Positions 3,271-41,116 of a stretch of 64,000 bases of DNA are shown piece after piece. Both the position numbers and the translations under genes were made by a program. The stretch spans positions 32,360 to 96,359 of the forward strand of contig CBDCOJ010000016.1 in NCBI GenBank assembly GCA_965219695.1. Reading direction: 5' to 3'. The stretch is from Candidatus Poribacteria bacterium. GTDB lineage: Bacteria > Poribacteria > WGA-4E > WGA-3G. The first letter of the stretch is position 1. Every line of letters begins with the position of its first letter. The notes under the pieces were generated by a model. It was not told the DNA's origin, ran no database searches, and was given only the letters and a program-made list of their open reading frames with translations.

Positions 3271-3732
3271 TTATGAATATGCCCGTATTTCTCGGTTAGC
3301 GTGTTCACGTTCAATTTTATCACGTTTATCGTAGACTCGCTTCCCTTGGGCAACTGCTAATTCTAACTTTACCTTACCACCGCTGAAGTAAGCACGTGTT
3401 GGAACTAAGGTCATTCCCTTTGATTGAACTGCTCGTGTTAATTTTCTTATTTCGTTCCGATGCAGTAAAAGTTTCCGGGGACGTTTCGGTTCATGATTCA
3501 TCCGATTTCCTTGATCATACAAACCGATAAACGCATCAATGAGAAATACCTCTCCGTCTGTTATTTGCGCGTAACTGTCGGTTAGGTTAAGTTGTCCGTT
3601 TCTAATCGCTTTTACTTCAGTTCCCCGCAAAACGATGCCTGCCTCATACCGATCATGTAGATGATAGTCATACCGTGCTTTCCGGTTGACAGTAATCGTT
3701 GGGTTCTGTGGGGATTTCTTTTTATCTTTCAC
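3271..3732 (-). CDS. smpB: SsrA-binding protein SmpB
   Basis: 153-aa ORF with NRKARYDYHL..EAGIVLRGTEVKAIR..., then LVPT..YF..GKVKLELAVAQGKR.YDKR and a basic C-terminal tail. Adjacent to ssrA. Confidence 0.95.
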   Translation of the reverse strand: MKDKKKSPQNPTITVNRKARYDYHLHDRYEAGIVLRGTEVKAIRNGQLNLTDSYAQITDGEVFLIDAFIGLYDQGNRMNHEPKRPRKLLLHRNEIRKLTRAVQSKGMTLVPTRAYFSGGKVKLELAVAQGKRVYDKRDKIEREHANREIRAYS

Positions 3733-21514: not shown

Positions 21515-22442
21515 TAACCTAAGTTGCCACCTATAAAATACTTCTAAATCCATGGGATTTTCTCTATAATGTTTTTATGAAATAAAACAGAAGGAGAAAC
21601 CCCATGGAATTAACCATTGTAGCAGTTTATACGATTTGTGACGATCTTTTAATTTCACTCGGTCATCAAACGCATCCACAAGCAAAAATGACAGATGCTG
21701 AAGTGATGACAACTGCGATTATCGCAGCACACTTTTTTAGCGGCAATCATCAAAGAGCTTGCTGTGTTCTGAAAACGCTTGGATACATCCCGAATATGTT
21801 GGGACACTCCCGATAAATCGTAGACTTCATCGGATACCTCATTTGTTTCAAATACTTTTTGAGTATTTCGCTGAAATCTCTAAATCCAATAATCCGAATG
21901 GTATTTATGCGATTGACACCTATCCTGTTTCTGTCTGTGACAACATTCGGATTAGTCGGTGTCGTCTCTATCAAGGTGAAGAATGGCGTGGTAAAATCGC
22001 AAGTAAACGCCGCCACTTTTATGGTCTCAAAGTGCATCTAATGGTCATTGAAAGTGGGCACATTGTTGAAGTTTTCTTCACCCCTGGCAAGTGGAACGAT
22101 GTCCGAGGTATGCGATATTTTCCATTTGATTTGCCACAAGGTTCTGTGGTGTTTGCGGATAAAGCATATTGCAACTATGGTATTGAAGACGCACTGAAGG
22201 AAGTCGGTATTGACTTTAGACCGCTGCGTAAAAAGAACTCAAAGCGTCAGTTTGAGCCGTGGGAAGTTTATCTGCAACATTTTCACAGAAAACGGGTTGA
22301 AGTGACAAATAGTCTGATTACACAACTATTACCGAAGTCAATACATGCAGTGACTGCGACAGGTTTTGAGTTGAAACTATTTTTATTTATCATCGCAACC
22401 AATATAAAACAACTTTATGGCGATAGGTAGCAACTTGGGTTA
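21515..22442 (+). mobile_element. IS982-family insertion sequence, copy A (inactivated)
   Basis: 928 bp, near-identical to copy B (42791-43719) in inverted orientation. Terminal IRs are taacctaagttgccacctat / ataggtagcaacttgggtta. Confidence 0.85.
21604..22430 (+). pseudogene. IS982-family DDE transposase, frameshifted
   Basis: Copy A reads cccgataaatcgtag at 21809-21823, where copy B reads cccgatataatcgtag. This 1-nt deletion splits the ORF into 21604-21816 and 21759-22430. Confidence 0.85.
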
Positions 22443-22550: not shown

Positions 22551-23348
22551 ATGAAAAATTTGATAAGAATTGGCATAGCAGTGCTTATCGCAGTCTGCTG
22601 GATAATTGGCACAAGTTATGCCGCAATTAATCCAGAGAACATCACGGGCATGTGGCTCTTTAATGAAGGTTCGGGTAACACTGCCAAAGATTCTTCAGGT
22701 AACAAGAATGATGGTAAAATCCACGGTGCAAAGTGGGTTGATGGAAAGTTTGGAAAGGCTCTTGAGTTTAATGGAACTGATAATTGGGTTGAAGTTTCAC
22801 ATTCAGACACTGTTGGGTTTAAAAAAGGCGTTTCCTTCACAATTACCGTCCATTTTAAAGGCACCAAAGTTGGCGGCTCACTCGTAGGTAAAAACTACGA
22901 GGATAAATCGCAGGCTCTTCCATGGTTTCTGCTTTGGAACGGTGGTGGGGATAATAAAGTAACACTTTATCTTCGTAATTCTGCCTCGGTGAGTTTTCGG
23001 GCAGATAGTACAAGCCAGATTGGTGATGAAGAGTGGCACTTTGTTGCTGGTAGAGCCGATGCCAGTACTGGAAAGGCTTCAATATGGATAGATGGTGAGA
23101 TGGAAGCCGAGGTTGATTTTGACAAAAATGATGGATATGGCACAAGTGACGGCGTACTCCATATCGCGCGACACTTTGACAGATATACTAACGGAATTAT
23201 TGACGATGTTGCGCTTTTTAATGTCGCCTTGAGTGAAGATGATATGGAAACTCTTATGGACAACGGTGTTGAAGAAGCCGCCGCTGTTGAACCCGTCAAT
23301 AAATACACAACAACATGGGCAAAAATTAAACGCCAAATTGTTAAATAA
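22551..23348 (+). CDS. Secreted LamG (concanavalin-A-like lectin/glucanase) domain protein
   Basis: Signal peptide plus Laminin_G_3-type motifs: WLFNEGSGNTAKDSSGNKNDGKIHGAKWVDGKFGKALEFNGTDNWVEV, WHFVAG, IWIDG, FDRYTNGIIDDVALFNVALSEDD. Confidence 0.85.
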   Translation: MKNLIRIGIAVLIAVCWIIGTSYAAINPENITGMWLFNEGSGNTAKDSSGNKNDGKIHGAKWVDGKFGKALEFNGTDNWVEVSHSDTVGFKKGVSFTITVHFKGTKVGGSLVGKNYEDKSQALPWFLLWNGGGDNKVTLYLRNSASVSFRADSTSQIGDEEWHFVAGRADASTGKASIWIDGEMEAEVDFDKNDGYGTSDGVLHIARHFDRYTNGIIDDVALFNVALSEDDMETLMDNGVEEAAAVEPVNKYTTTWAKIKRQIVK

Positions 23349-23363
23349 TAAGGAGAGATGTTA

Positions 23364-24170
23364 ATGTTACTAACTAAAAATGTGGGAATTACGTTTACGA
23401 TTCTAATAGCTGCTTTTTTGCTGATTGCGCTGCCGGGATACGCTGAGTTTGACTTTGAGAATATCACTGCGATGTGGCTCTTTGATGAAGGGGAAGGCAC
23501 TGTGGTTACTGACTCGTCAGACCAAGAAAATGAAGGCAATATTCACGGTGCGACGTGGGTAGATGGCAAATTCGGCAAAGCACTTGAATTTGATGGGACT
23601 GATGATTGGGTGGAAATTCCACACTCTGACAGTGTTGGGTTTGAAGCAGGAACATCATTCACCTTGACACTTCATTACAAAGGCACAAAAGTTGGTGGTT
23701 CACTTGCGGGCAAAAACTATGAAGACAAATCGCAAGCACTACCTTGGTATATGTTTTGGAATGGTGGTGGCGATGCCAAAATCACTTTTTTCCTGCGGAA
23801 TGCAGCGGGGACAAGTTATAGACCACAGAGTACATCCGATATTGCTGACGACAACTGGCATTTCATCGCTGGCGTAGCAAACACTGACACTGGTAAAGCG
23901 AGTTTGTGGATAGATGGCAAGATGGAGGCAGAACTTGATTTTGACACTGACAGTGGATACGGTAATAGTGAAGGTGTTTTTCACATCGGGCGCCACTTTG
24001 ATCGGTATACCGCTGGTATCATTGACGATATTGCGCTCTTTAATGTCGCTTTAGATGAAGCTGATATGCAATCAATTATGGAAGACGGGCTTATGACTCT
24101 TACCGCTGTTGAAGCTGCTGGAAAACTCACAACGACTTGGGCAAGTGTTAAACAACGTATCGCTCGATAA
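23364..24170 (+). CDS. Secreted LamG domain protein, tandem paralog
   Basis: Same motif set as 22551. ATG 23364 is preferred (8 nt after aggag) over the track start at 23358. Confidence 0.85.
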   Translation: MLLTKNVGITFTILIAAFLLIALPGYAEFDFENITAMWLFDEGEGTVVTDSSDQENEGNIHGATWVDGKFGKALEFDGTDDWVEIPHSDSVGFEAGTSFTLTLHYKGTKVGGSLAGKNYEDKSQALPWYMFWNGGGDAKITFFLRNAAGTSYRPQSTSDIADDNWHFIAGVANTDTGKASLWIDGKMEAELDFDTDSGYGNSEGVFHIGRHFDRYTAGIIDDIALFNVALDEADMQSIMEDGLMTLTAVEAAGKLTTTWASVKQRIAR

Positions 24171-24337: not shown

Positions 24338-25507
24338 ATGAAAAAGATACTGACATTTCCAGCAATAGCATTTTTGCTGTTGGCTGCATTCGGCTGTGGG
24401 ACTTCAGAAGATACGATTGACCCTGGTCCAGACGTGATTGAAACAGGCGAATTCCGGGGGAGTATTGAATTACTTGAAGATGCGACTATTCAGGTGCGCT
24501 TGCTCAAAGCAGGAGAACTCTTCGCACAAATCGAATTCGCAAAAGAAGGAGTATCACAGACGAGCGTTGGGAACGTTCAAGCCGAAATCATCGCGTCAAC
24601 TGATTCAGGGATTGGAAACTTTCGCGTTACCGAAGCTGAACTCGGCGATTACACACTACAAATTTCAGCAAAGGGATACCAAGAGACTGAACTTAACGTG
24701 ACTGTTGTGACGGCTCAAGAGGTATCACTGGATAAGGTAGCACTCGTGGCATTGGCAGAGCCTGTATCACATTTGCGTGGGGTTTTAACCGACTCGGAAA
24801 CGGGTGAGGTGCTTTCTGATGTGCTTGTCCAACTTACGGATAAGGCAGGTAAAGCGTACGAAGTATTAACAACGAAAGAAGGTGTTTTCACCTTTGAGAA
24901 TCTCCCCGTAGATCAAGGATTCACCTTGACGGTTATGCATAAAGGTTTTGAAGATAACAAAGTTGATGTGGATCCGATTTCTGCTAATGAGACTTTTGAA
25001 CTGGATGTAGAACTCACAGCAATACCTGAACCTGAGAAGTTAGACCCCGGCCAAGGACTCAGTATAGGCACTCAAGCCCCCGAATTTCAGTTGTCCGACG
25101 GAAATGGTGAGCAACACGCCCTCGCGGACTATGTTGGTAGCAAAAAGGTGGCTATCGTCTTTTACCGCGGTGGTTGGTGACCGTTTTGTCGTGATCAACT
25201 CGGAGAGTTGCAAGACAATTATCATAAATTTCAAGCTGCAGGTGCTGAACTCATTGCTATTAGTTCCGATAATGTAGCAGCAACAGAACAGACGGTTGAA
25301 AAAGAAGGTCTAAAATTCGTAGTGCTTGCTGATAACGATAGAGAAGTAATTGAAGCTTACAACGTTGTTGATCCAGCTAACAAGAGAATAGCGCGACCTG
25401 CATCCTATGTTATTAGAAAAGATGGAACAGTTGCCTGGAAATCCCTTGATCCAAAGGTCGGACGTGTTCCTACAGCCAAAATTCTCGAAGAATTGGGCAA
25501 ACTTTAA
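24338..25507 (+). CDS. Lipoprotein: two CarboxypepD_reg-like domains plus a peroxiredoxin/redoxin-like domain with in-frame TGA (candidate Sec, U-P-F-C)
   Basis: The track ORFs 24338-25180 and 25208-25507 share one frame (25208-25178 = 30). Read-through gives ...VAIVFYRGGW-[TGA]-PFCRDQLGELQDNYHKFQAAGAELIAISSDN..., an AhpC/TSA-redoxin CxxC motif. The signal ends in FGC, a lipobox-like sequence. Confidence 0.7.
25188..25216 (+). promoter_or_regulatory. Candidate bacterial SECIS hairpin 1
   Basis: The stem caact/agttg (25196-25200 / 25206-25210) closes the loop cggag. An outer gtc/gac pairing is also possible. The stem starts 16 nt after the TGA at 25178-25180. Confidence 0.5.
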
Positions 25508-25583
25508 ATAATTAACTTGTAGGTGTCAATTTAGAGTATTTCTTTCTTGTTGGAGGGAAACCTTGTAAGCCCGATTTTTTGAT

Positions 25584-25641
25584 GTGAATCAACGCCTCAT
25601 GCGCGTATAGCATTCGTCGGGAGCGAACTCCAGTTCGCGAC
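25584..25641. repeat. HP-1 / REP-variant composite between the two candidate selenoprotein genes
   Basis: gtgaatcaacgcctcatgcgcgtatagcattc + gtcgggagcgaactccagttcgcgac. Confidence 0.7.
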
Positions 25642-25672
25642 CCATTTGTTGAGAAGGGAGCAATATTTATTC

Positions 25673-26509
25673 ATGAAACAGATACAAAGTCTTCTCGCAT
25701 TGATAGTTTTGCTGTTTGCTGTATTCGGTTGTGGTACAGCAGACAATCTTATCGGTGACGGAGATAAAATTGATACATCTACAGGCAAATTGCAAGGAGA
25801 AGTGCAGTCAATTGATGGAGTAGCAATTCAAGTGCGCCTATTAAAAGGCGGACAACTCGTGGCACATACCGAAGCACATGGTAGTTACGATTTGAACGAT
25901 ATTGAAGCGGGAGATTACACACTCCACATCTCAGCTAATGGATACCAAGAAGTCACACTCAATGTTACTGTTGTTGGCGGAGAAACTGTTTCATTAGATA
26001 AAGTGTCACTTGTTGAATTAGTAATCCCTGGACATGATTTGGATCCGGGTGAGGGATTGAACATCGGCAGCCAAGCACCAGATTTTGAGTTGCCAGATGG
26101 AAATGGTGAGTTACACGCTTTTTCAGACTATATCGGAAATAACAAAAAGGTGGTGATCGTTTTCTACCGAACTGGTGGCTGAGGCCTCTGCACTTCGCAA
26201 CTCGTGGAGTTGCAACAGAATTACGAAAAAATTCAAGACGCAGGTGCAGAACTTTTCGCGATCAGTTCCGAAAACGTGGCGTTAACACAAAAGACAGCCG
26301 AAAACCACGGACTCAAATATCCTGTACTCTCCGATAACAAAAAAGAGATGATTATCGCTTACAATGTGCTCGATCCGTATAACACCAGAATAGCACGTCC
26401 TGCAGCGTATATTATTACACCAGATAGAAAAGTTGCTTGGAAATCACTTGATACTGCTGGTGTGCGAGTGCCAACAGCGACTATTTTGACGGAATTGGGC
26501 AAACTCTGA
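25673..26509 (+). CDS. Lipoprotein: one CarboxypepD_reg-like domain plus a peroxiredoxin/redoxin-like domain with in-frame TGA (candidate Sec, U-G-L-C)
   Basis: The track ORFs 25646-26182 and 26204-26509 share one frame (26204-26180 = 24). Read-through gives ...VVIVFYRTGG-[TGA]-GLCTSQLVELQQNYEKIQDAGAELFAISSEN.... ATG 25673 yields MKQIQSLLALIVLLFAVFGCGT. Confidence 0.7.
26197..26213 (+). promoter_or_regulatory. Candidate bacterial SECIS hairpin 2
   Basis: gcaactc-gtg-gagttgc is a perfect 7-bp stem. It starts 15 nt after the TGA at 26180-26182, the same position as in paralog 1. Confidence 0.5.
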
Positions 26510-27624
26510 TGAAACCTCAAGATACAGTTTTAGCAAACATCCTCGCGGACAGTAAAGAGGCGATGCAAAAACGAGATACGCTCAACCGTCGCCAATTCCT
26601 AAGTCGTATCGGTACTATTAGTGGTGCTGCGCTAAGTACTCTTCCCGCTTTCGCGCAAATTGGTGGTGGGCGGGTGTTGACCCCTCCAACGGAAACAGCA
26701 GCACTTCCACCTGTAGTCGAAGTTCTCGGGAAACAGGTTTGGGATGAAGACAGACTCAACGAAGATGTTGTAGGTGAAATGATTGATCAGTCTATGATGA
26801 AGCTGACTGGTCGAGATTCTGCCAAAGAGGCGTGGCGAGACTTTGTGCTACCTGACCACATTGTCGGTATTAAAATTAATCCGATTGCCGGTCCAAAATT
26901 GAGCACACACTCAGCAATAGTCAACAAAATTATTGAGGGTTTATTCAGTGCTGGGGTACTTAGAAAGCAGATCATTATTTGGGATCGATTTGAAGCACAT
27001 TTACTTAACGCTGGGTATCCGATTAAGACAGATGAAGGGGATGTACGAACACTTGCCTCTGATATGGATGACATCGGTTATGATGACAAAGTATTTTATG
27101 AAACCGAAGAAGACAGCATTACCAGACGAGAAAATGAAAGCACCCGTTCTCAATATTCTCGCATCGTTACAGAACTGGTAGATGTATTAATTAATGTGCC
27201 TGTCTTGAAACACCACGATATGGCAGGCATAAGCGGATGTTTAAAGAATATGGCTTTTGGTAGTGTTGACAATACAAAGCGGTTCCACGGAAAACCACTC
27301 TACTGCAATCCTGCTATTGGTGAGATTTTTCAAAACAAAGTTTTAAAAGAGAAGGTCGTCCTCAATATCGTTGACGGATTGACTGCTTCTTTTGACCAAG
27401 GTCCTGGATATGACGCAGAGAGTACTTGGAAATTTGGGGGCATGTTTGTGGGGACTGATCCGGTTATCTTAGATGTGCTTATTCTTCAAACTGTGAATCA
27501 GAAACGCGAGGAGATGGGATTGAGTTCAATGTCTAAATATGCCAACCACATCACTACCTCAAGTAGTCTCGGTTTGGGCAGCAATTCACTGAATCAGGTT
27601 AATCTACAGAAAATTGAGGTGTAA
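26509..27624 (+). CDS. DUF362 domain protein with twin-arginine (TAT) signal
   Basis: The TAT signal is NRRQFLSRIGTISGAALSTLPAFAQ. The DUF362 pattern includes IVGIKINP and SGC. The start overlaps the upstream stop (TGATGA). Confidence 0.75.
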   Translation: MKPQDTVLANILADSKEAMQKRDTLNRRQFLSRIGTISGAALSTLPAFAQIGGGRVLTPPTETAALPPVVEVLGKQVWDEDRLNEDVVGEMIDQSMMKLTGRDSAKEAWRDFVLPDHIVGIKINPIAGPKLSTHSAIVNKIIEGLFSAGVLRKQIIIWDRFEAHLLNAGYPIKTDEGDVRTLASDMDDIGYDDKVFYETEEDSITRRENESTRSQYSRIVTELVDVLINVPVLKHHDMAGISGCLKNMAFGSVDNTKRFHGKPLYCNPAIGEIFQNKVLKEKVVLNIVDGLTASFDQGPGYDAESTWKFGGMFVGTDPVILDVLILQTVNQKREEMGLSSMSKYANHITTSSSLGLGSNSLNQVNLQKIEV

Positions 27625-27628
27625 TTCC

Positions 27629-27871
27629 ATGAAAAGCAAATACATTCCTATATTTATTCTGCTGAGCGTATTTTTCATGACGGTTGTACTTTCAGGTTGT
27701 ACGGTGACCTTCACTGCAAACGACTCGTTACAGTTTAACCTCTCAAAACCGACTGACAAAACCGTGTCTCTTGTTACTGAATTTGAAGCAGGTGAAGAAG
27801 ATAATGTCTCTGGTGATGTTACACAGAAGGCTGGCAGTGTCTGTGCTGGCGGGGCATGCATCATTTATTAG
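27629..27871 (+). CDS. Small lipoprotein, hypothetical
   Basis: MKSKYIPIFILLSVFFMTVVLSGC is a lipobox, and a gaggtg RBS lies upstream. The C-terminus is Cys-rich (CAGGAC). Confidence 0.55.
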   Translation: MKSKYIPIFILLSVFFMTVVLSGCTVTFTANDSLQFNLSKPTDKTVSLVTEFEAGEEDNVSGDVTQKAGSVCAGGACIIY

Positions 27872-28180: not shown

Positions 28181-30505
28181 TTATTGATTGGTATCTGGTA
28201 AATCTATTGGCTGGATGTTGTCATCTTTGTCAAAAGTGAAATCTGCGAATCCAACACCTATGATACTAATCCGAATGTTCCCCAACCCATCGGTCATGAG
28301 ACTAACATCTCCCCTACTCATATATCCTAATACTTCTATCTGTAGGGATCCATCACTTTGATACCTATCCTTATTGTTTATCTCTCTCAGAATGACATTA
28401 CCTTTCTCTTTTTTTATTTGATAGTTATTTTGTTTCAGCCAGTTTTGCACGACTTCCGAGTCTTTTTTCCAAGGCTTTTTTACGACTTTATCCGGCACTT
28501 TTCTAACACCGATTTTTTCCCAATCCCAAAGGAGTACAGTACCATCCTGGCTGCCGCTGGCAAGCGTTTTACCGTCGGGAGAAAAATCCAATGTTTCAAT
28601 CGGTTTTGTATGTCCAGTCACAGTCCCTAAACCGTTCCCTGTCTCTACATCCCATATCTGGACATCATACTCTTTACCGTGCGATCCTGCAGCCAGAAGA
28701 GATTTGCTATCTGGTGCGAACAAAATCACATTTGTAACCCCTCTAAAATTATTTAGAATCATGGTGGATTCTCCAATTCCTGTTGATGTCACTTTTGACA
28801 AAATGACCCCGTACCGATCTTTTACTGCAAGGGTGGTACCGTCAGGTGAGAATGCCAATACTTCAGATCTATCAAATGCTGTAGTAAAAGGAGTTAGATA
28901 TCGCTCTGAATTGATATTCCATACCTGTGTTGGTACCCAACGTCCATAAGTGGCAAGTAAGGTTCCGTCGGCTGAAAACATTAACTTTCTGTCTCTAAAC
29001 GGTTCTTTCGTTTTTAGGTGAAACAGTTTCAGACGAGTGTTAGTGTCCCACAATTCAATTACCTGCGAATTGCTGTAAGCAATAGTATTTTTATCAGGTG
29101 AGAATGCGACTGCTGTAGCCTTTCCACCTACTTCTAACTCGGGAACGGGAATCTCATCTCCAGTAGCTATCTCCCAAAGTTTCATGTGTTTATCAATTTT
29201 GAATTCTGATCGTCCAACCCCAATCATAGCAGTACCACCCCAACTCATAAAGCGTATCGCATCAGGTGACAATACAAGTTGACGTACTATATCACGTTTG
29301 CCAGCAGAAAAGGTAATCAGTTCTTGCTTCGTTTTCAGGCTCCAAATCTCTATAGTTCCGTTATATGATCCGCATGCCAGTGCAGTACCATCTTTAGAAA
29401 ACTTAACAGCCTTTACAAATTCTGTATGACCTGATGTAAATGTAGTGATTTCTTCTCCTGTGTCTTGATTCCAAAACCGTATTGTGCCATCGTAACTACC
29501 ACTCGCCAATGTTCTACCATCAGGGGAAAATGCTAATGCGTTGATTGCGCTTGCATGTCCTAATAGCGTTGCACGTTCAGCATGTGTCTCTATATCCCAG
29601 AGTTTGATAACCTTATTCGCATCCCCACTTGCTAAGATTCTTCCATCTTTAGAGACGGCTAATGCATTAATCCAGCCTTTATGTCGTTCAAGTATCGCAA
29701 GCCTTTTCCGTTTATCAGCATCCCACAATCGTACAGTTTTATCTTCACCTCCGCTTGCAAGTATTCTTCCATCGGGTGAAAACGCTAAAGCAGTAATTTT
29801 TCGATCTCTTGGGGAATTAACCATACCTTCAACCAATTTCAGAGAACCCAACAAAGTGATATGTCCTCTGAGAGTTGCTCGCTTTTTACCAGAATTCGAA
29901 TCCCACAAATATATTTTTCCATCATTATGTCCAGTGGCAAAGATATTTTGATCATCAGCAAAAGATATTGCATTATATGCGTCTAACTTCCACAATTCTG
30001 TTCCTAAGTTCAATAGCTTTTTGCCGGTACTTGCATTCCAATACTCAATTTGACCAGTTCTATCCAGACTAATGAGCGTTGTTCCACTGAATGCCAACGC
30101 CTTAATAAACATAACTCTTTCAGTCAATGTGGGTGTAGAAAGTAGGTTACCTGTATCTAAATCCCAAACTTGAATAAAAGGGATTTCCACTCCAGCGCTT
30201 GCAAGCATTTTGCTATCTGATGAAAATGCAAGTGCGTTCACATGCCCAGTATGTCCCGTGAACAAAGCGGTTTCTTTTCCATCTGGCACATCATATAACC
30301 ACACGCCAACATCTGTTCCTACAGCAAGTTCTGTGCCATCCGGTGAAAACCGCATGATATTTATACCGCCCTTTCCAAGCCGTGCGATTGCGCCTTCGGG
30401 TAAACCGGCTTGTGTATTGTCCTGTGCAAAACTGGTTGAGAGTATTGCTACAATCAATAGAAAAATCAGGCAAGATAGGTTTTTGATTTTCATGGCTAAA
30501 TTCAT
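28181..30505 (-). CDS. Secreted WD40 repeat protein (double propeller) with a novel ~100-aa C-terminal domain; array member 1
   Basis: 774 aa with a signal peptide, the conserved head FAQDNTQAGLPEGAIARLGKGGINIMRFSPDGT and about 14 WD repeats (GH...FSPDG..LASGS.D.T..LWD). An alternative start is ATG 30493. Confidence 0.9.
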   Translation of the reverse strand: MNLAMKIKNLSCLIFLLIVAILSTSFAQDNTQAGLPEGAIARLGKGGINIMRFSPDGTELAVGTDVGVWLYDVPDGKETALFTGHTGHVNALAFSSDSKMLASAGVEIPFIQVWDLDTGNLLSTPTLTERVMFIKALAFSGTTLISLDRTGQIEYWNASTGKKLLNLGTELWKLDAYNAISFADDQNIFATGHNDGKIYLWDSNSGKKRATLRGHITLLGSLKLVEGMVNSPRDRKITALAFSPDGRILASGGEDKTVRLWDADKRKRLAILERHKGWINALAVSKDGRILASGDANKVIKLWDIETHAERATLLGHASAINALAFSPDGRTLASGSYDGTIRFWNQDTGEEITTFTSGHTEFVKAVKFSKDGTALACGSYNGTIEIWSLKTKQELITFSAGKRDIVRQLVLSPDAIRFMSWGGTAMIGVGRSEFKIDKHMKLWEIATGDEIPVPELEVGGKATAVAFSPDKNTIAYSNSQVIELWDTNTRLKLFHLKTKEPFRDRKLMFSADGTLLATYGRWVPTQVWNINSERYLTPFTTAFDRSEVLAFSPDGTTLAVKDRYGVILSKVTSTGIGESTMILNNFRGVTNVILFAPDSKSLLAAGSHGKEYDVQIWDVETGNGLGTVTGHTKPIETLDFSPDGKTLASGSQDGTVLLWDWEKIGVRKVPDKVVKKPWKKDSEVVQNWLKQNNYQIKKEKGNVILREINNKDRYQSDGSLQIEVLGYMSRGDVSLMTDGLGNIRISIIGVGFADFTFDKDDNIQPIDLPDTNQ

Positions 30506-32826
30506 TTATTTGTGTTCTTTCCTTCGTCAAGAGGTTTGTGTTTCAGTTTTCTTTCTTCATCAAACATGAACTTGCCTACTCCTACACCAACCACACGAAT
30601 TTCAAGAACACCGTTTCCATCAATCTTAACATTTACCTTACCACTACTTATTCGTCCTCCGCCCCCACCTGAAACCGTGGTACTACCAGTACCACGTGTA
30701 AGCGTATATCCTTTTAAGGTTTTCTTAACTTTATATCCGTTTTTCTGCATCCAGTTTAAAATCGCTTCAGCTTCTTCCACCTTGCTGGCGTATTCCACGG
30801 GTTTATCAGGAGGCGCCAAATTGCTGCTCAAGTTTTTTTCTATTGCATCATTCATTGCCTTGGTAACGATCTTTTTCCAATCCCAGAGAAGGACTGTTCC
30901 ATCTTTACTTCCACTTGCAAACGTTTTGCCGTCTGTTGAAAATTCTAAGACTGTAATTTCCTCAGTATGTCCTGATAATGTACCAAGATTCCAGCCGTTT
31001 TTCACACCCCATAGCTGAATTAGATTTTTCCAACCATTCGTTTTCGGTGTAACAAGAAAGTTGCCATCAGGTGAGAATTTCAGTTCCTTATTACGTCCAG
31101 TATCAAGTATTTTACCGCGTTGTTTCATGCCGGTTGGTTTAATATCCCATAAAACAATATGATCATGATGACCAGAAGCAAGAAGTGTACTGTCAGGTGA
31201 AAATGCTACTGTTTCTGCAAGATCCATGTTGGAAGGTGTAATTCGCTGTTGCGTCCCAACATCCCATATTTGTGTTTGGTTATGCGCACCACCCGATGCA
31301 AACAGTTTGCCGTTGGGAGAAAACTCCAACCTTCTTGAAAATGGAGAATGTAAGTGCACGTGAAACATTTCCTCACCTGTGTTTATATCCCACGCAAGAA
31401 TGCTATCTCTATGACGAATTCCTGCGACAAGTATTTTGTTGTCCGGAGAGATTGCAAGTGCGTTCACAGGTCTATCCAAATCCTGCCAAGGACCAGGGAT
31501 ATGTTCATCCGTGGTAATGTTCCATAACTGGATAGGTTTCCGTTTACCTACGCCTGAACCGCGATATCCAAAACCTATTGGTCTAAATGCCAGTTTACCA
31601 CCATTGGCGCCTTGACTAACAAGAAGTGTTGCATCCGGTGAAAATGCTATTCCATTTGTATTCTCGTTTTGTGCTGCAGTAAAGGTGGTTAGTTCACGTT
31701 TCGTTTTTACACTCCATACATCAACAGATCCATCAAAGGAGGCACTTGTGAGTATTGTGCCGTTTTCTGAGAATGCGACTGTTTTAACCCACTCTGTGTG
31801 TCCAGCGGTGAAAGTAGAAATTACTTCGCCTGTATCTTGATTCCAGAACCTGATTGTGCCATCGTAACTACCACTCGCCAATGTTTTTTCATCAGGGGAA
31901 AACGCTAATGCACTAATCGCATTTGTATGTCCAATGAGCGTAGCCCGTTCCTGTTTTGTGTTTACATCCCAAAGTTTGATGACCTTATTCGTATCACCAC
32001 TTGCTAAGATACTTCCATCAGTAGAGAAAGCAACAGCAATAACCCACCCATTATGACCATTGAAGGTGGCAAGGCTTTTGCGATTTTCTGTATTCCACAA
32101 CTTGACAGTTTTATCTAAACTTCCACTGACGAGCATTTTTCCATCAGGTGAAAATGCCAATGCCCAAACATCTTTGTCATCGATTTTGAATAAACGCGCA
32201 TGCCCCATTAGGTTTGCTTGTCGTTTGCCCGTTGTTGCATCCCATAAACGGATTTTGCCGTCGCCATGACCAGTGGCAAGCATGTTGTTTGCTGGAGAAA
32301 ATACAACCGCTTCGTGAGATTGCATCCTACTTGAACTAGACGTCTTACTGCCAGTTTCAATATCCCAATGTGTGAATCTCCCAACCATATCCAAGCTAAT
32401 AAGTGTTTTAGCGTCTTCAGAGAATGCTAATGCCTCAATTGAATCTGTCGGTCTTGATAATGTGAAATTTGATAGTTTTGTCCCAGTTTCTATATCCCAT
32501 AGTTGAATAATAGGGTTTGAAAATCCACCGCTTGCGAGGATTTTTCCATCAGGTGAAAATGCAAGTGCGTTCACATGCCCAGTATGTCCCGTGAACAAAG
32601 CGGTCTCTTTTCCATCTGGCACATCGTATAACCAAACGCCAACATCTGTCCCTACCGCGAGATGTGTGCCATCCGGTGAAAACCGCATGATATTTATCCC
32701 ACCTTTGCCAAGCCGTGCAATTGCACCTTCAGGTAGACCGGCTTGTGTGTTATCTTGTGCGAAACTACTTGAGAGCAGTGTGACTGTGAGTAGCATAATT
32801 GTGAAGAATATGATTTTGGTTTTCAT
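30502..32826 (-). CDS. Secreted WD40 repeat protein, array member 2
   Basis: 774 aa. Its first roughly 95 residues are almost identical to member 1, also at DNA level. Its stop overlaps the start of member 1 (ATGA). Confidence 0.9.
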   Translation of the reverse strand: MKTKIIFFTIMLLTVTLLSSSFAQDNTQAGLPEGAIARLGKGGINIMRFSPDGTHLAVGTDVGVWLYDVPDGKETALFTGHTGHVNALAFSPDGKILASGGFSNPIIQLWDIETGTKLSNFTLSRPTDSIEALAFSEDAKTLISLDMVGRFTHWDIETGSKTSSSSRMQSHEAVVFSPANNMLATGHGDGKIRLWDATTGKRQANLMGHARLFKIDDKDVWALAFSPDGKMLVSGSLDKTVKLWNTENRKSLATFNGHNGWVIAVAFSTDGSILASGDTNKVIKLWDVNTKQERATLIGHTNAISALAFSPDEKTLASGSYDGTIRFWNQDTGEVISTFTAGHTEWVKTVAFSENGTILTSASFDGSVDVWSVKTKRELTTFTAAQNENTNGIAFSPDATLLVSQGANGGKLAFRPIGFGYRGSGVGKRKPIQLWNITTDEHIPGPWQDLDRPVNALAISPDNKILVAGIRHRDSILAWDINTGEEMFHVHLHSPFSRRLEFSPNGKLFASGGAHNQTQIWDVGTQQRITPSNMDLAETVAFSPDSTLLASGHHDHIVLWDIKPTGMKQRGKILDTGRNKELKFSPDGNFLVTPKTNGWKNLIQLWGVKNGWNLGTLSGHTEEITVLEFSTDGKTFASGSKDGTVLLWDWKKIVTKAMNDAIEKNLSSNLAPPDKPVEYASKVEEAEAILNWMQKNGYKVKKTLKGYTLTRGTGSTTVSGGGGGRISSGKVNVKIDGNGVLEIRVVGVGVGKFMFDEERKLKHKPLDEGKNTNK

Positions 32827-32844
32827 ATATTAATTTCCTCTATT

Positions 32845-34864
32845 TTATTTTGCTCTGGTAACGATTTTTTCCCAATCCCAAAGGAGAACGGTGCCATCAT
32901 CGCTGCCACTTGCGAGGATTTTACCGTCATGTGAGAACGCCAATGTCTCAATCCATTTCGCATGTCCAGATACATTCCCCAAATTATTGCCTGTATCCAC
33001 ATCCCAAAACTGAATAAGATTTTGTTGACCAGTATATTGGACGTCAAGAAGGATTTTCCCATCGGGAGAGAATGTTAACAAGCTGCCAAATCCTCGGTGA
33101 TTATTGCGAGTGATCTCCCTATGTTTTTCAATACTTGTTGGTGTTACACGCCATAGATCAATGCCTCCACGATATTTCAGAGCAAGCAGCGAACTGTCCG
33201 GTGAAAACGCTAATCCATCAGACTTTTGGATGTTCGGTAGTGCAATTTCGCCCTGTTTGGTTACATCCCATAACTGTGTTTGGACAAATGTGCCATGTGT
33301 CGCGAGAAGTTTCCCGTTAGGTGAGAACACTAATCTTCTCCCAAACGGTTCTTTCGTTTTAATATGGAGTAGTTTGGTCCCAGAGTTTATGTTGAACAGA
33401 TTGATACCCTGACGACGAGTGCCTGCAGCAAGTATTTTGTTATCAGGGGAGAATGCAAGTGCCGATGTCTCTTGTGGGAAAGATATGAGTTTGTCCCCTA
33501 TCGGAAGAATCGACAACCGAATTTCTTTGTGGGATTTCGATCTGGCAGTTGCGGTAGTCCCTTCTGAACTGACAATAGTATCTACTCCGTTGCAAGCAAA
33601 GAGTGTTGCGTCTTGAGAGAACGCTAATGCGTTTATCGCGTCGTAATGTGTAACCGATGGAGAGGGTAATTCTTTTCCTGTCTCAACATGCCATATTTGC
33701 ACTACGCCATCATACCCTGCACTGCATAACATGGTGTTATTCGTACTGAACGCAAGGGCTTTCACTGATGCTGTGTAGCCTGTTGCGAAGATTAAATGTT
33801 CTTTTCCGGTATTTGTATCCCAGAATCGAACAGTGCCATCAGAGCTTCCACTTGCAAGAAGTGCTTTTTCTGTGGGAGAGAACGCCAGTGTGTTAATGCT
33901 ATTCTTGTGTCCAGAAAGCGTAGCAAGATGTCGACCTTCGTTGACATCCCACAACATAATTGTATTGTCAGCACTCCCACTTGCCAGTATTTTACTGTCT
34001 GGTGAAAAAGCGACCGTATTAATAATTTCAGTATGTCCTTTAAGACTAACACGTTCTGCTTTGGTAGCCGTATCCCATAATCGGATCATGTCATCGTCGT
34101 GAGCACTCGCGATGGTTTTGCCATCAGGTGAAAATGCTAACGTCTCAACACCTTTTTTCACCTCTTTGTCCTTTGGGTTTCCACCGAGTAACTTTGAGAC
34201 GGTATTTCCTAAGGAGAGATTTGGTTTTCCCTTAAATACATCACTTAAACTGCCCTTGACTGTATCACCTAAACGGATTTCACATGCGATTGCATCCCCT
34301 GTAACAAAAGTTTTACCGTCCTTGGCAAATGCAACGACTGACTTTGAATTGTCGAATTGTTTTTTTGAGATTTCTTTGCCTGTTTCAATGTCCCACTCTA
34401 CAATATGTCCTGCTTTGCCGATACTGAAAAGTGTTTTTTTGTTTTCGGAAAATACCAGTGCTGAAATTCCAATAAACTTTTGGGTTAATGTAAAGGTTGA
34501 CAGCTGATTACCTGTTTCCAAATCCCATAAAATAATGATGGAATTATTATACCCAGTACTTGCGAGTTCTTTGCCATCTGGTGAGAATGCGATTACATTG
34601 ACTTCCTCAGTATGTCCAGAAAATAAAGGCGTTCCTTTTCCATCTGGCACATCATATACCCGTTTGCCACCACACGCCGATGCTTGTGCCTACTGCAAGG
34701 CGCGTGCCATCCGGTGAAAACTTTATCACACTTATTCCACCTTTTCCAAGACGGGCGAGTGCGCCTTCAGGTAGACCGACTTGCGTATTGTCCTGTGCAA
34801 AACTACTTGAGGGCAGTGTGACTGTGAGTAGCATAATTGTGAAGAATATGATTTTGGTTTTCAT
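32845..34864 (-). pseudogene. Secreted WD40 repeat gene, array member 3, disrupted by a 10-bp insertion
   Basis: The N-terminal 70-aa fragment (34652-34864) and the body (32845-34650) are in different frames. Against member 2, 10 bp (cccgtttgcc, 34659-34668) are inserted inside the GVWLYDVPDG codons. The gene lacks the C-terminal extra domain. Confidence 0.8.
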
Positions 34865-34867
34865 ATA

Positions 34868-36873
34868 TTAATTTCCTCTATTTTCTTTAGCTTTGGTAAC
34901 GATTTTTTCCCAATCCCACAGGAGCACCGTCCCATCCATGCTGCCGCTGGCAAGCATTTCACCGTTATGTGAAAACACTAAAGTCTCAATTGGTTCCGTA
35001 TGACCTGTAAGATTCCCAATTACATCCCCATTTTCCACATCCAATCAGATTTCATGTGAATTGTCAACCCATCAGAACCGATTCCAAGAATAGTCTCCAT
35101 CAGGCGAGAATGTCAAGACTGGACTTAATCCCCACAATCTTGCGGGGAGTTTTGTATGTGCATCCTCTTTATCTGCATTTAAATTCCATAAATTGATACC
35201 ATGCGAACCTGCAGTCGCAAGCGTAACACCGTCAGGTGAAAATGCCACAACTTGTGCTGGTTCCATATCAGGAGGTGTAGGAGGGGTAATATCGTTCTGT
35301 GTTACTACATCCCACACTTGGGGTTTGTGATGTGATCTTAGCGCAGCAAACTTTTTCCGTCAGGTGAAAATATCAACTGCCCTCTGAACAACGGACCATT
35401 TGTGGGAAGCTGGAACAGTTCAATTCCAGTTTCAATCTGCCATATTCTAATTCCTTGCCTATCATTTGAGGCAATTATATTTTTATCTGGTGAGAATGCG
35501 GGTGCTGCTGTTATCGGACCTAGAGGCTGCAACGGTAACGGAAATTCTCTTCCTGTAGTAATCTCCCATACTTTAAGATTGTCTTTATCTTCACTATTAA
35601 TATGTGCTCCTGATCCTATTGACCTAAACGCAATCATGCCGCTGCTACCCTGACTTGCAAAGTACTTCGCATCCGGTGACAATGCAGTTGACCAAGTAGT
35701 ATCGCTATGACCACCAATAAACGTCGTTATTTCCTGAAGACTCATTAAACTCTATATCTCCACTGTTCCATTAAAAAATGCGGTTGCAAGCGTTGTGTCA
35801 TTTTCAGAAAATGCAACTGATTTGACCCACTCATTATGTGCTGTTGCAAAGGTAATGAGTTCTTCTGACGTATCTGTATTCCAAAACCGAATAGTTCCGT
35901 CAGCACTCCCGCTGGCGAGGCAACCACTAAAACGGGACGAACCTACAGGGGCAAAAGTTAGGGCATTAATGGTATTTTTATGTCCCGTCAGAGATGCTTG
36001 GACTTTTTTTGTTTCTATATCCCAGACTTTGATAACTCTACTTGCATCACCACTGGCAAGTGTCTTCCCGTCCTTAGAGAAAGCAAGTGCTGTAATCCAT
36101 CCTTCATGCCCTCTGAGTGTAGCGAGTTTTTTGTAGTTTTGGGTATCCCACAAGCGTACTGTTTTGTCTTCACTCCCACTTGCGAGGATTTTACCATCAG
36201 GTGAAAAAGCCAGCGCATGAATTTCTTTATCTTGTTGTTTGAACAGGGTTGCATGACCAATTAGAGTTCTTTTTAATTTGCCCGAGGTTGCATCCCAGAG
36301 ATGGATTTTACTGTCTTTTGCGCCAATGGCAAATAACCTACCGTCTTCTGAGAATGTGACTGCATCAAATTGCACGACTTTTCCTGATTCTGACAATTGA
36401 TTCCCTACATCCACATTCCAGTAATATATTTGACCTCGTCGGTCTAAACTAATGAGCGTTGAGCCATAGAACGCCAACGCTACTATCGAATCTTGGAGCC
36501 TGTTTAAACTAATGGAAGGCAGCTTCGAATCGGTGTTTAAGTCCCATAGCTGAATAATAGTGCTATTTGATCCACCACCTGCAAGTAAGTTTCCGTCTTG
36601 TGAGAATGCCAAAGCCTGCGCCTGCCCGGTGTGACCAGTGAACAAAGCGGTTTCTTTTCTATCCTCCACATCGTATAACCACACGCCGATGCTTGTGCCT
36701 ACTGCAAGGCGCGAGCCATCAGGCAAAAACCGCATGATATTTATCCCACCTTTGCCAAGCCGTGCAATTGCACCTTCGGGCAAACCAACTTGTGTGTTGT
36801 CTTGAGCAAAATTGGTTGAAATGGGTACTAAACTCAGAACTAAAATTGAGAAATATGTATATATCCTACTCAT
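34868..36873 (-). pseudogene. Secreted WD40 repeat gene, array member 4, multiply disrupted
   Basis: Fragments are 35752-36873, 35338-35745, 35072-35317 and about 34868-35060. An in-frame TAG at 35752-35754 replaces the conserved Trp of E(I/V)WS. At least two further frameshifts follow. Confidence 0.8.
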
Positions 36874-37659: not shown

Positions 37660-39048
37660 ATGAGTTGGAACATTGTCGTCGTTGTTTCAGATACACTTCG
37701 GACAGCATATTTAAGCCCTTATGGTAACGATTGGGTCCACACACCGAATTTGGCACGGTTTGCCGAAGAGGGTGTGAGGTTTACGAATGCACACCCTGAA
37801 TGTTTGCCCACAATTCCGACGCGCCGCACACTGCATACAGGCAGACGCGTCTATCCATTTAGTTCTTATAACCCTGTGCCGTGGGATAACGTCTATACTC
37901 CCGGTTGGCAGCCGATGTCTTCGGATGAACCAGCAATTGCAGAGTCGCTTGTCCGAAATGGGTATCACACAGGTTTTTTTGCCGATGTGCCACACTATTT
38001 TGTGCCCGGAATGAACTTTACACGAGGATTCCGACAGTGGCAGTTTGTTAGAGGACAAGCAGAAGATAGATACCGCGGCGGTGCTCACGCTGATCCAAGT
38101 CAAGTTTCCAGATACCGTGGCAATCCAGAACGTGTACGTTCTCATATTGTGAATGTACAACCGGAACGTGAGGAAGAAAACTGGCCCACTGCGCGATTGT
38201 TCCGTGCTGCAATTGAATTTGTAGAACATAATCATGAAAATACACCTTTTTATCTATATGTAGACGGATTTACGCCACACGAAACATGGGAAGCACCTAT
38301 CCATTACTACGACCTCTACGGTAGCAGAGAAGATCGGGAACCGATTTGCCTCAATCTGCCCTACGGTTCGCTCAAAGATGAAGAACTTGAAGATCGTCTG
38401 CCAAGTGTAAAAGCAAATTATGCTGGCTTGGTTACACTTGTAGACACGTGGTTTGGAAGATTAGTAGACACTATTGATCGGCTCGGATTACGCGATAACA
38501 CGCTGATTATTTTCCTTAGCGATCACGGCACGAACTTTGCAGAGAATCCAGATAAAGCTACTGGAAAACCCGCCAACTTCATGTATCCCGGTACGATGGA
38601 TATTCCGCTTCTCGTCCGTCATCCTTCTGGTGTTAACGCTGGCACAACTTGCGATGAATTTGTGTATACGCTTGATGTGCCTGCAACCGTTATGGCAGCA
38701 AGTCAAGTAGAACCTGCTGGTGAAATTCAGGGACAGAGTCTACTTCCTCTTGTTGAAGGAAAAAGCGGATTTACCTCACGTGAATACCTCACTTGTCGCT
38801 ATGTCAACTCCGTTTGGTATAAAGACGCGAAGAGTTGGTATTTTTCAAGTGTTGATCTCAATAATGGCACACGTCTATTTGACCTTGAGGCGGACCCAAC
38901 ATGTCAGAATAACATTACAGATCAAGGTGCTGACCGAATTTCACTTGCACATGAGCGTATTTTAGCCGATGCAGGTGGACATTTGCCGCACTATAAACGT
39001 CAAGGTAGAACGGATGCACTGGGCAGACCGCAGTTCGCTGAGGAATAA
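37660..39048 (+). CDS. Sulfatase-like (alkaline-phosphatase superfamily) hydrolase, non-canonical nucleophile motif
   Basis: 462 aa with an N-terminal VVVVSDTLR, then HPECLPTIPTRRTLHTG where C/S-x-P-x-R is expected, and later FLSDHG. There is no signal peptide. Confidence 0.7.
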   Translation: MSWNIVVVVSDTLRTAYLSPYGNDWVHTPNLARFAEEGVRFTNAHPECLPTIPTRRTLHTGRRVYPFSSYNPVPWDNVYTPGWQPMSSDEPAIAESLVRNGYHTGFFADVPHYFVPGMNFTRGFRQWQFVRGQAEDRYRGGAHADPSQVSRYRGNPERVRSHIVNVQPEREEENWPTARLFRAAIEFVEHNHENTPFYLYVDGFTPHETWEAPIHYYDLYGSREDREPICLNLPYGSLKDEELEDRLPSVKANYAGLVTLVDTWFGRLVDTIDRLGLRDNTLIIFLSDHGTNFAENPDKATGKPANFMYPGTMDIPLLVRHPSGVNAGTTCDEFVYTLDVPATVMAASQVEPAGEIQGQSLLPLVEGKSGFTSREYLTCRYVNSVWYKDAKSWYFSSVDLNNGTRLFDLEADPTCQNNITDQGADRISLAHERILADAGGHLPHYKRQGRTDALGRPQFAEE

Positions 39049-39828: not shown

Positions 39829-41046
39829 ATGAAACGTCTACATTCCAGACAATCTTCAATTACCATGCTTCTTGTCATCCTTGTGCTTACAATTGCTATC
39901 TCTTGGAATTCGACTGCACAAAAAACTTTATCAAGTATTTCCGGTAGAGTAATAGATGAAAATGGCAATCCGGTTGTGGGTAAAAAACTTGCAATCAAAC
40001 CTGTTACGACGGGTATGCGAGGCGAAATGGCTGCGCGTACACCTTTTTTATCTTGGTTGCGATCTGTGACTGATACTGAAGGACGTTTTACATTCCTTAA
40101 CATAGATCCTGTTTCGTCACAATTTGCGATGTTCCCGGAACACGGTTCTGATTATGAACTAATTTCCATGACAATCGGTGACTTAACCTTTCAGTCTACG
40201 GCATTTCGTAGCGGCTTGGGAACGAATTTTGGAAAATTGACCTTTGCAGTTGATCCTGACCATCACCTTGAGAATGTAATTGTTAACGTAAAAACACCGC
40301 GGACAAGGATCCGTGGACGCGTTCTTTTGCAAGATGGCACACCGCTCGCGAATGAAGAGTTATGGCTGATGGTTAGTAACTATCGTCGTTCTCCATCAGG
40401 TAGAGGTGGTGGAGGCGGAAGTTCAGGAAGAAATGTAAAGACTGATAACCAAGGTTATTTTGTCACATACAATGCAGAAGCACCTGCTGAAAACACAGTA
40501 AAGATGACTTATAAAGGGATGGTCTTACAATCAGAAAAGATCATCCTAAACGAAGGTGAACGTTACGATGACCTCGTGTTTGTCCTCAAAAACATTGATA
40601 GAATGAAAGCGCGAGAGGGAATTTGGTTAGTGAATCCTGAAAATGGACACGGATACAAAAAAATTGAATGTGATAGTTGGGAGGATGCCAAAGCAAAAGC
40701 TGCAGCTTTAGGCGCACATCTCGTCGCTATTAACGACGAAGCGGAACAGAAATGGTTAGAAGGATTGTTTCATGAGAAGTCGTTTTTTTGGATCGGCTTA
40801 AGTGTACCAGAAACCGATGATTCATGGCAGTGGGAGAATGGACAACCACTCACCTATACGAACTGGAGAAATTCAGAGGAACCTGATTATATCAACGATA
40901 ACGAAATCAAAGACCCTTTTGCACTGGGTTTCCATTCAAAGAAATGGATGGTAATTGGACCTAATAGTCCGTTCTTGTCTTCAGTGAAGAATGCAATCCT
41001 TGAAAAAGAAGGATTAAACGCGCCTACGCCTGAAGCCAATAAGTAA
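39829..41046 (+). CDS. Secreted protein: CarboxypepD_reg-like domains plus a C-terminal C-type lectin (CLECT) domain
   Basis: Signal peptide, then ISGRVIDENGNPVVGKKL. The C-terminus reads WLVNPENGHGYKKIECDSWEDAKAKAAALGAHLVAINDEAEQKWL...FWIGLS....WQWENGQPLTYTNW. Confidence 0.75.
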   Translation: MKRLHSRQSSITMLLVILVLTIAISWNSTAQKTLSSISGRVIDENGNPVVGKKLAIKPVTTGMRGEMAARTPFLSWLRSVTDTEGRFTFLNIDPVSSQFAMFPEHGSDYELISMTIGDLTFQSTAFRSGLGTNFGKLTFAVDPDHHLENVIVNVKTPRTRIRGRVLLQDGTPLANEELWLMVSNYRRSPSGRGGGGGSSGRNVKTDNQGYFVTYNAEAPAENTVKMTYKGMVLQSEKIILNEGERYDDLVFVLKNIDRMKAREGIWLVNPENGHGYKKIECDSWEDAKAKAAALGAHLVAINDEAEQKWLEGLFHEKSFFWIGLSVPETDDSWQWENGQPLTYTNWRNSEEPDYINDNEIKDPFALGFHSKKWMVIGPNSPFLSSVKNAILEKEGLNAPTPEANK

Positions 41047-41116
41047 ATGCTGGTTTTCTCTGTGTGCCCTTATTCATTGACATCAGAAATTAGTGAACTC
41101 AAAGGAGGAATTCAAC

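Follow-up and report, generated by a model that had tools for sequence, protein, structure and literature searches.

Two neighbouring lipoprotein genes of a sponge-associated Poribacteria genome carry in-frame TGA codons that are probably recoded to selenocysteine

Introduction

A stretch of 64 kb from contig CBDCOJ010000016.1 of a sponge-associated Poribacteria genome (the window, by which we mean the whole of the DNA analysed here) holds two neighbouring genes, A and B (PrxU-A and PrxU-B), each of which contains one in-frame TGA. Does this codon terminate the two proteins or is it read as an amino acid, and if so, as which one? A preliminary description of the locus had proposed that both codons specify selenocysteine (Sec, U) at the first redox position of a redoxin domain. 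We compared the two genes with their relatives at the level of the protein, the codon and the RNA hairpin downstream of the TGA. These comparisons point to the recoding of both codons to selenocysteine within a U-x-x-C active site, a reading to which we assign a probability of about 0.88.

Results

The open reading frame (ORF) track splits A and B into two pieces each. The nucleotide sequence and its translation bear out the initial proposal that the pieces of each pair share one frame, with TGA opening a [U/C]xxC motif, and reading through the TGA gives the predicted products of 389 and 278 residues. Gene A reads ...KKVAIVFYRGGW-TGA-PFCRDQLGELQ..., its upstream part ending in VAIVFYRGGW, and gene B reads ...KKVVIVFYRTGG-TGA-GLCTSQLVELQ..., with the upstream end VVIVFYRTGG. 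In both genes the Pfam AhpC-TSA match spans the TGA, with E-values of 1.8e-35 (A) and 2.1e-30 (B), and its scores of 122 and 105.7 bits compare with a gathering cut-off of 26. A six-frame scan of the window gave no other convincing frame split by a single TGA besides A and B.

A protein search with gene A (U written as C) against 5.8 billion proteins returned 262 matches, the best 120 of which were examined. These share 52-91% identity with the query, none covers more than 72% of it, and those that are named belong to Candidatus Poribacteria. All 120 were observed to end at the residue before the TGA, with the terminal sequence FYRGGW in 107, FFRGVW in six, FYRGRF in three and four other variants in one each. 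No close full-length Cys form was present among these best 120 of the 262 homologs. The family is thus split at the TGA in every gene call examined, with products of 284-307 aa under names such as 'redoxin domain-containing protein', and Poribacteria proteomes accordingly carry a truncated lipoprotein and an orphan fragment of about 100 aa in place of one selenoprotein, if the recoding proposed here is correct.

At the DNA level, the sample comprised 17 species-representative Poribacteria genomes, several of them complete chromosomes, and three further contigs; gene A had full-length tblastn matches in all 17 genomes. Together, the window, these genomes, two further loci (L019/L020) and five distant relatives (L022-L026) supplied 31 non-redundant Sec-type gene copies. 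The active-site codon is TGA in 31/31 of them, never TAA or TAG and never a Cys codon, while the terminal stops of the same genes alternate between TAA and TGA from copy to copy. The five distant relatives, retrieved by an exhaustive representative search followed by contig look-up, are only 38-50% identical and have TGA at the site in every case (5/5); three of them come from lineages with 64-70% G+C. Since the TGA is seen in more than 20 independent assemblies, complete long-read chromosomes included, an assembly error or a recent nonsense mutation is excluded, which settles in the negative a concern raised in the preliminary description. The Sec form is fixed across the sampled part of the phylum and is duplicated in one clade. 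One of the distant loci contains a third PrxU type (L026:2659-3303), which reads FYRTGT-U-GDC and has a lipobox without a beta-sandwich domain; its neighbours are sulfatase, PhyH and LamG genes, and not DUF362.

The frame downstream of the TGA remains open to the end of the protein in every Sec-type copy, over a length of exactly 108 codons in the 26 copies from Poribacteria and the window and of 108-115 codons in L022-L026. Codons +1 to +5 after the TGA lie 5' of any possible restart codon and keep the sequence P-F-C-R-G, with variation at synonymous sites (CCG/CCC, TTC/TTT, TGC/TGT, AGA/CGT). The Cys of U-x-x-C is invariant and is encoded by TGC and TGT at a ratio of 15:8 among the homologs. 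This pattern indicates purifying selection at the protein level immediately after the TGA. For L005-L020, which are divergent Poribacteria genomes, identity is in fact higher over the last 108 residues (69-73%) than over the N-terminal part (50-62%). We conclude that the TGA is conserved and that the frame beyond it is translated. A genome-wide reassignment of TGA was also considered and was rejected, since seven of 41 window genes end in TGA (25 end in TAA and nine in TAG); gene B itself is one of those ending in TGA.

These observations bear directly on an alternative, namely that the TGA is a true stop and that the loci are pseudogenes, or split genes from which the N-terminal lipoprotein and a C-terminal piece of about 100 aa with its own start are made independently. 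Public gene calls do show such a split, with proteins of 255-320 aa and fragments of 99-101 aa that start at TTG, GTG or ATG 8-10 codons after the TGA. However, the supposed stop is always TGA, and never TAA or TAG, in 31 copies; the codons preceding the restart, including that of the invariant Cys of xxC, are under purifying selection at the amino-acid level; the break would fall in the middle of a thioredoxin fold, at its active site; and a recent nonsense mutation is excluded, since the codon is shared by genomes whose proteins are 52-91% identical. Termination at the TGA is therefore hardly credible to us.

We then examined what stands at the position of the TGA in other members of the family. 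The best match of the redox domain in the Protein Data Bank (PDB) was Bacillus subtilis ResA (E = 1.9e-15; PDB 1st9, 3c71 and others), whose W-C-E-P-C aligns with W-U-P-F-C. When the C-terminal 108 residues were used as the query of a representative search, dozens of full-length relatives were observed to read FYRGxWCPxCxxQL, again with Cys aligned to the TGA, as it also is in L027-L029. The aligned codon, which the preliminary description had singled out as informative, is therefore TGA in all 31 Sec-type copies and specifies Cys in the full-length relatives and ResA. About 45% of the best 150 matches of the representative search are fragments of around 100 residues, several of which start at xxC (MHCQRQLGELQ, MYCRTQLGELQ, MCIQQLVELQ). 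Such fragments resemble halves of additional Sec forms, which all five of those looked up turned out to be.

Both TGA codons are followed by a short hairpin (Table 1) resembling a bacterial selenocysteine insertion sequence (SECIS). The positions and the G-containing loops of the two hairpins are as first reported, whereas the distance from the TGA, originally put at 15-16 nt, is 15 nt in A and 14 nt in B. As part of the coding sequence, the hairpin itself encodes Q-L-[G/V]-E-L-Q, and it occurs at one fixed offset in 31/31 copies, each of which matches the pattern TGA-N15-CARCTCGNNGAGYTG; the motif is absent elsewhere in the window. According to the published bacterial SECIS consensus, a stem-loop is found shortly after the UGA with G as first or second base of its apical loop in 100% of Sec-type genes (PMC13582414), and both A and B have such a stem-loop with G so placed.

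Synonymous variation within the stem was compared with that at other codons. In 23 Poribacteria sequences no synonymous change was observed at any of the five stem codons (CAA CTC ... GAG TTG CAA), while the mean pairwise synonymous difference at 93 other codons was 0.42 and only 6/93 were invariant. The loop codon does vary (GGA, GGT, GGC, GTG, GTT), with its first G invariant, and so do the flanks. Within the stem, moreover, Glu is encoded by GAG and Leu by CTC or TTG, all of them minority codons (27% of Glu, 14% and 19% of Leu, respectively); with the codon usage of the window, only about 2% of genes encoding QLxELQ would be expected to form a 6-bp stem. The inner six pairs of the stem are paired in 26/26 sequences. 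In three high-GC Sec relatives CAG...CUG replaces CAA...UUG, a compensatory change from A-U to G-C, and no half-changed sequence was found. The hairpin is under constraint at the RNA level.

Similar hairpins were also encountered outside the Sec-type genes. Three Cys-type relatives from high-GC genomes (L027:1001-1474, L028:1001-1594 and L029:1001-1621; FYRGxW-C-xxC-RxQ[LF]GELQ) have the hairpin at the same offset after a TGT or TGC codon. This suggests either a recent Sec-to-Cys conversion or a pre-adapted peptide motif, and switching between Sec and Cys within the family. A hairpin is likewise kept in Cys-type hydrogenases (PMC13582414).

Recoding of the UGA through this hairpin could, in principle, insert Cys or another residue instead, for instance by way of a SelB-delivered tRNA of the tRNA-ReC/selC* type. 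Such tRNAs occur in 13-17% of surveyed genomes, and both anticodon types can mediate SECIS-dependent UGA recoding (PMC13582414); the residue inserted at a UGA cannot be told from sequence alone. Cys, though, is directly encodable by TGC or TGT, as it is in the relatives, and yet 0/31 copies have gone over to either codon, an argument against the inserted residue being equivalent to Cys. In addition, Poribacteria genomes are listed with the clusters of orthologous groups (COGs) of SelA and SelD, which are required for nothing but the synthesis of Sec (PMC5649159). In Table S4 of Slaby et al. 2017 (PMC5649159) the counts for SelA, SelB and SelD are 2, 1 and 1 in bin70, 4, 1 and 2 in bin44, and 2, 1 and 1 in WGA-3G, and Poribacteria are listed among the phyla with Sec-type group 4 hydrogenases (PMC13582414, 2026). 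The Sec trait is thus supported at the level of the phylum, by three Poribacteria genomes in a published COG table, and not for this genome itself. Taking these points together, we consider insertion of a residue other than Sec very unlikely.

The coordinates of the two genes and of the surrounding cassette are collected in Table 1. In the product of gene A, a signal peptide with lipobox is followed by two beta-sandwich domains of CarboxypepD_reg-like type, and these by a thioredoxin-fold (AhpC/TSA) domain bearing the motif U-P-F-C; its paralog B has a single beta-sandwich domain. The lipobox-like sequences (...AFGC in A, ...VFGC in B) place the Cys at residue 20 as judged by inspection, and nearly all of the best 120 homologs of A likewise have a Cys after the hydrophobic region. 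For gene B we take ATG 25673 as the start, since TTG 25646 of the ORF track precedes the evident signal peptide. After the TGA the two proteins are 64% identical (69/107 aligned residues), which agrees with the earlier estimate of about two-thirds and replaces its hand count of 66/100; their N-terminal parts are 41-49% identical, and A has the additional beta-sandwich domain. The A-B tandem is also found in L001-L004 and L020/L021.

Table 1. Features of genes A and B and of the conserved cassette (window coordinates; all on the + strand)
Feature	Position	Strand	Details
LamG genes (two, tandem, Laminin_G_3)	22551-23348 and 23358-24170	+	Conserved upstream part of cassette
Gene A (PrxU-A)	24338..25507	+	ATG 24338, TAA 25505-25507; 389 residues counting TGA
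Gene A signal peptide and lipobox	24338..24397	+	MKKILTFPAIAFLLLAAFG-C20, by inspection
Gene A first, weaker CarboxypepD_reg/PEGA-like domain	about 24455-24742	+	About residues 40-135 (Pfam)
Gene A second CarboxypepD_reg domain	24773..25018	+	Residues 146-227 (Pfam)
Gene A AhpC/TSA domain	25064..25438	+	Residues 243-367, across TGA; 122 bits, profile 1-123 of 124
Gene A in-frame TGA	25178..25180	+	Codon 281, proposed selenocysteine codon
Gene A Cys of U-x-x-C	25187..25189	+	TGT; proposed resolving Cys
SECIS-like hairpin A	25196..25210	+	CAACUC-GGA-GAGUUG, 6-bp stem, first loop base G; 15 nt after TGA
Gene B (PrxU-B), paralog of A	25673..26509	+	ATG 25673, stop TGA 26507-26509; 278 residues
Gene B signal peptide and lipobox		+	...VFGC, C20, by inspection
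Gene B single CarboxypepD_reg domain	25811-25999	+	Residues 47-109 (Pfam)
Gene B AhpC/TSA domain	26063-26440	+	Residues 131-256, across TGA, with U-G-L-C; 105.7 bits
Gene B in-frame TGA	26180..26182	+	Codon 170, proposed selenocysteine codon
Gene B Cys of U-x-x-C	26189..26191	+	TGC
SECIS-like hairpin B	26197..26213	+	GCAACUC-GUG-GAGUUGC, 7-bp stem, first loop base G; 14 nt after TGA
DUF362 gene	26509..27624	+	Twin-arginine signal (NRRQFL); ATG overlaps gene B stop (cTGATGa)
Small lipoprotein gene	27629..27871	+	80 aa, lipobox LSGC; last cassette gene

The two genes are part of a conserved cassette. In each of the 20 fetched Poribacteria loci the order is LamG gene(s), one or two PrxU genes, DUF362 and a small lipoprotein gene, the second PrxU being found in the clade of the window and in L020/L021. 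The DUF362 gene lies directly downstream of PrxU in every Poribacteria locus and starts within a few bases of its stop; in the window it appears to be translationally coupled to PrxU-B through the overlap TGATG. Its product has two invariant Cys residues (C244 and C266) and is 68-96% identical across the fetched Poribacteria loci, above the values for the N-terminal parts of PrxU. No PDB sequence match was found for it, and an AlphaFold model built on a 33-sequence alignment had a mean pLDDT of 47 and was not used for a fold search. The small lipoprotein, with a mature form of about 57 residues ending in GSxCAGGxCIIY, gave no Pfam or NCBIfam match. Its C-terminus GDVTQKxGSxCAGGxCIIY, which contains a CxxxxC motif, is nearly invariant across Poribacteria, and homologs occur in L001-L019 and L025. 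In L025 (1640-3309) an extra Cys-type TlpA-like gene (WATWCKPC) stands directly upstream of the cassette of stalked PrxU, DUF362 and small lipoprotein.

Several other features of the window were recorded. Arrays of WD40-repeat proteins (774, 774, 601 and 373 aa) occupy 28181-36873 on the minus strand, and a further one of 840 aa lies at 51634-54156 (-); WD40 genes flank the cassette in most of the homologous loci. A count of 50-120 WD40 COG matches per Poribacteria genome has been reported (Slaby et al., PMC5649159). Two ORFs with the same Pfam families encode DDE_Tnp_1_3 transposases (21759-22430, +; 42803-43630, -), the first of them just upstream of the LamG-PrxU cassette, a position at which the homologous loci have none. 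Two adjacent proteins at 39829-41046 and 41093-42526 (+) combine CarboxypepD_reg with a C-type lectin domain; this beta-sandwich module thus recurs on further predicted surface proteins of the genome. At 4135-4920 (+) there is an FGE-sulfatase (formylglycine-generating enzyme-like) gene and at 37660-39048 (+) a sulfatase gene; L019 and L026 likewise have sulfatases beside genes of PrxU type. A tmRNA gene (tag ADQELALAA; 2897-3252, -) lies next to smpB (3271-3732, -). Finally, the ORF at 9454-12351 (+) encodes a 965-aa protein in which an N-terminal ECF sigma-70 region 2/4 is fused to Sortilin/BNR-like beta-propeller repeats, an unusual fusion.

Discussion

Our analysis suggests the following working model for PrxU-A and PrxU-B. 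The UGA would be read as selenocysteine by a bacterial SelB/tRNA-Sec system, SelB being recruited by the short hairpin (G)CAACUC-GNN-GAGUUG(C) that starts 14-15 nt after the UGA. The proteins would undergo Sec-dependent (secretory) export followed by lipidation at Cys20, a location predicted from their signal peptides. One (B) or two (A) CarboxypepD_reg beta-sandwich domains would form a stalk that holds the C-terminal redox domain in the periplasm. There, the selenolate may attack a disulfide, a sulfenic acid or a peroxide, the Cys three residues further on would resolve the intermediate to a selenenylsulfide, and the latter would be recycled by some reductant.

A number of observations weigh against recoding to selenocysteine, or limit what can be built on it. 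Neither tRNA-Sec (ARAGORN, window and 25 loci) nor selA, selB and selD (Pfam, about 45 window ORFs, and the fetched loci) were found. No SECIS or other match was obtained from Rfam at gathering thresholds over the whole window, or at E <= 10 on 25100-26300; bacterial SECIS elements being too short and variable, we do not count this negative against the finding. Stretches of 63 nt folded alone were no more stable than shuffled ones (z = 0.05 and -0.86), so that the significance of the hairpin comes from its conservation and not from its folding energy. A conserved lower SECIS stem is lacking and different clades can pair different registers, and hence only the apical hairpin is claimed. The sole covarying stem pair follows the genomic GC content. 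Furthermore, the three Cys-type relatives, which had been chosen for a QLGELQ-type peptide, keep the hairpin where its absence had been expected; it is therefore not exclusive to Sec forms and not a stand-alone proof, and may in part go back to the peptide motif. As to biological role, the proposed function and clients follow from sequence similarity to proteins about 30% identical and from the order of the genes.

If the two residues are indeed selenocysteines, the kind of chemistry that they serve has to be asked. The redox domain could mainly be a periplasmic peroxidase, GPx- or Prx-like and acting on H2O2 or organic hydroperoxides, instead of a client-specific thiol-disulfide reductase. 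The domain does belong to PF00578, and the second-best PDB matches are BCP/PrxQ proteins: in Aeropyrum pernix BCP (2cx3), the next match after ResA, the peroxidatic Cys aligns with the Cys of UxxC. Selenocysteine is a good peroxide nucleophile, and oxidant-rich sponge tissue would be a plausible setting. The alignment with BCP, though, would place Sec at the Thr/Ser position of PxxxT/SxxC and Arg at the Pro position; the peroxiredoxin signature itself is absent, F-Y-R-G-G-W-U-P-F-C being found in its stead. All NCBIfam peroxiredoxin models score far below their cut-offs (BCP 62.6 of 140, PrxQ 41.9 of 260, PrxU 41.4 of 270, AhpC 36.6 of 272). The best score among all models is that of ResA, which is below its own cut-off as well (70.7 of 170), as are TlpA (18.2 of 230) and DsbE (15.6 of 123); indeed no NCBIfam model reaches its cut-off for A, B, DUF362, LamG or the small lipoprotein. 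The tight and universally conserved link to a Tat-exported DUF362 protein and a CxxxxC lipoprotein further suggests dedicated clients. A mainly peroxidatic function thus seems to us possible but on the unlikely side.

We favour a role as a ResA/TlpA-like thiol-disulfide reductase over that of a direct peroxidase, given the missing peroxiredoxin signature, the low scores of the peroxiredoxin models and the top rank of ResA in both PDB and NCBIfam. Candidate clients of such a reductase would be the DUF362 protein with its two invariant Cys residues and/or the small CxxxxC lipoprotein. It is tempting to go further and to regard the whole cassette as an undescribed selenium-dependent periplasmic redox module, in which it is the task of the Sec enzyme to mature or recycle the DUF362 protein and/or the CxxxxC lipoprotein and in which Sec is obligatory, the last point being suggested by the absence of a stalked Cys form from the best 120 of 262 homologs and from the fetched Poribacteria loci. 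We put this forward as a speculation and hold it to be rather doubtful.

If selenocysteine is inserted as proposed, Poribacteria would spend selenium on the redox chemistry of the cell envelope. SelA and SelB have been reported to be enriched in sponge symbionts (PMC5649159), and the genes described here would add a testable function to that enrichment. Sec-type relatives in unrelated high-GC lineages again have the very short invariant SECIS in QL[G/V]ELQ, and it may persist as a relic in some Cys-type relatives. The combination of hairpin and peptide would then be a compact example of Sec/Cys interconversion, as well as a simple search pattern for more members. The link to DUF362 and the small CxxxxC lipoprotein also provides a way into a large domain of unknown function.

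How does this pair of proteins compare with known systems? Among the NCBIfam models, the SelL-related redox protein (NF040769), the WAxxUGC ResA-like family (NF041054) and TUGYCR redoxin (NF053656) stand for (seleno)proteins that have the thioredoxin fold and carry Sec within or beside a CxxC-type motif. The motifs of A and B, GGW-U-PFC and TGG-U-GLC, differ from these, and their scores lie well below the cut-offs (52 of 120, 22 of 300 and 18 of 100, respectively). With BCP/PrxQ and the Sec peroxiredoxin PrxU (TxxU, NF040737) they share the Pfam family and the alignment of the BCP peroxidatic Cys with the Cys of UxxC. In NF040737, however, Sec replaces the peroxidatic Cys, whereas in A and B it stands three residues earlier and PxxxT is missing.

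ResA and the extracytoplasmic oxidoreductases of the TlpA/DsbE type resemble A and B in having W-[C/U]-x-x-C, a membrane tether and an extracytoplasmic location, both as predicted for A and B, and the Pro of the cis-Pro loop before a Y/F-hydrophobic strand. They differ from the proteins described here in that ResA has Cys in place of Sec and shares only about 30% identity with them, and B lacks the Trp before the active site (G-U-G-L-C). In contrast to the ResA/TlpA setting, ccdA, resBC and ccm cytochrome c maturation genes are absent from the window and the homologous loci.

The closest correspondence is with the selenoproteins known as Prx-like 1 (PF00578, UxxC), so that the preliminary description was right to speak of a known class of Sec-containing Prx-like oxidoreductases. 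The class, credited to Kryukov & Gladyshev 2004 through reference 12 of PMC13188914, counted 225 selenoproteins and 2,740 Cys homologs in the GOS data (pfam00578, UxxC; Zhang & Gladyshev 2008, PMC2398784). A 2026 review table gives it as a 'Prx-like thiol:disulfide oxidoreductase' of PF00578 with UxxC, predicted with high confidence (PMC13188914). A and B share with it an AhpC/TSA domain in which Sec comes first in UxxC, numerous Cys homologs, a bacterial SECIS inside the gene and a marine setting. The published representative is WP_010940744.1, and we compared A and B with the class by its description; by domain, TGA, Cys homologs and SECIS-like hairpin, both fit as predicted members. The selenoprotein class is therefore known and no new principle is involved. 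The lipobox and CarboxypepD_reg architecture had seemed unfamiliar from the outset, and in the literature library searched no paper describes it. To the Prx-like 1 class A and B add a lipoprotein signal, a stalk of one or two CarboxypepD_reg domains, a tandem pair and a Poribacteria-wide cassette; the lipoprotein anchor, the stalk, the tandem, the cassette and the fixation of the Sec form across Poribacteria are what is new.

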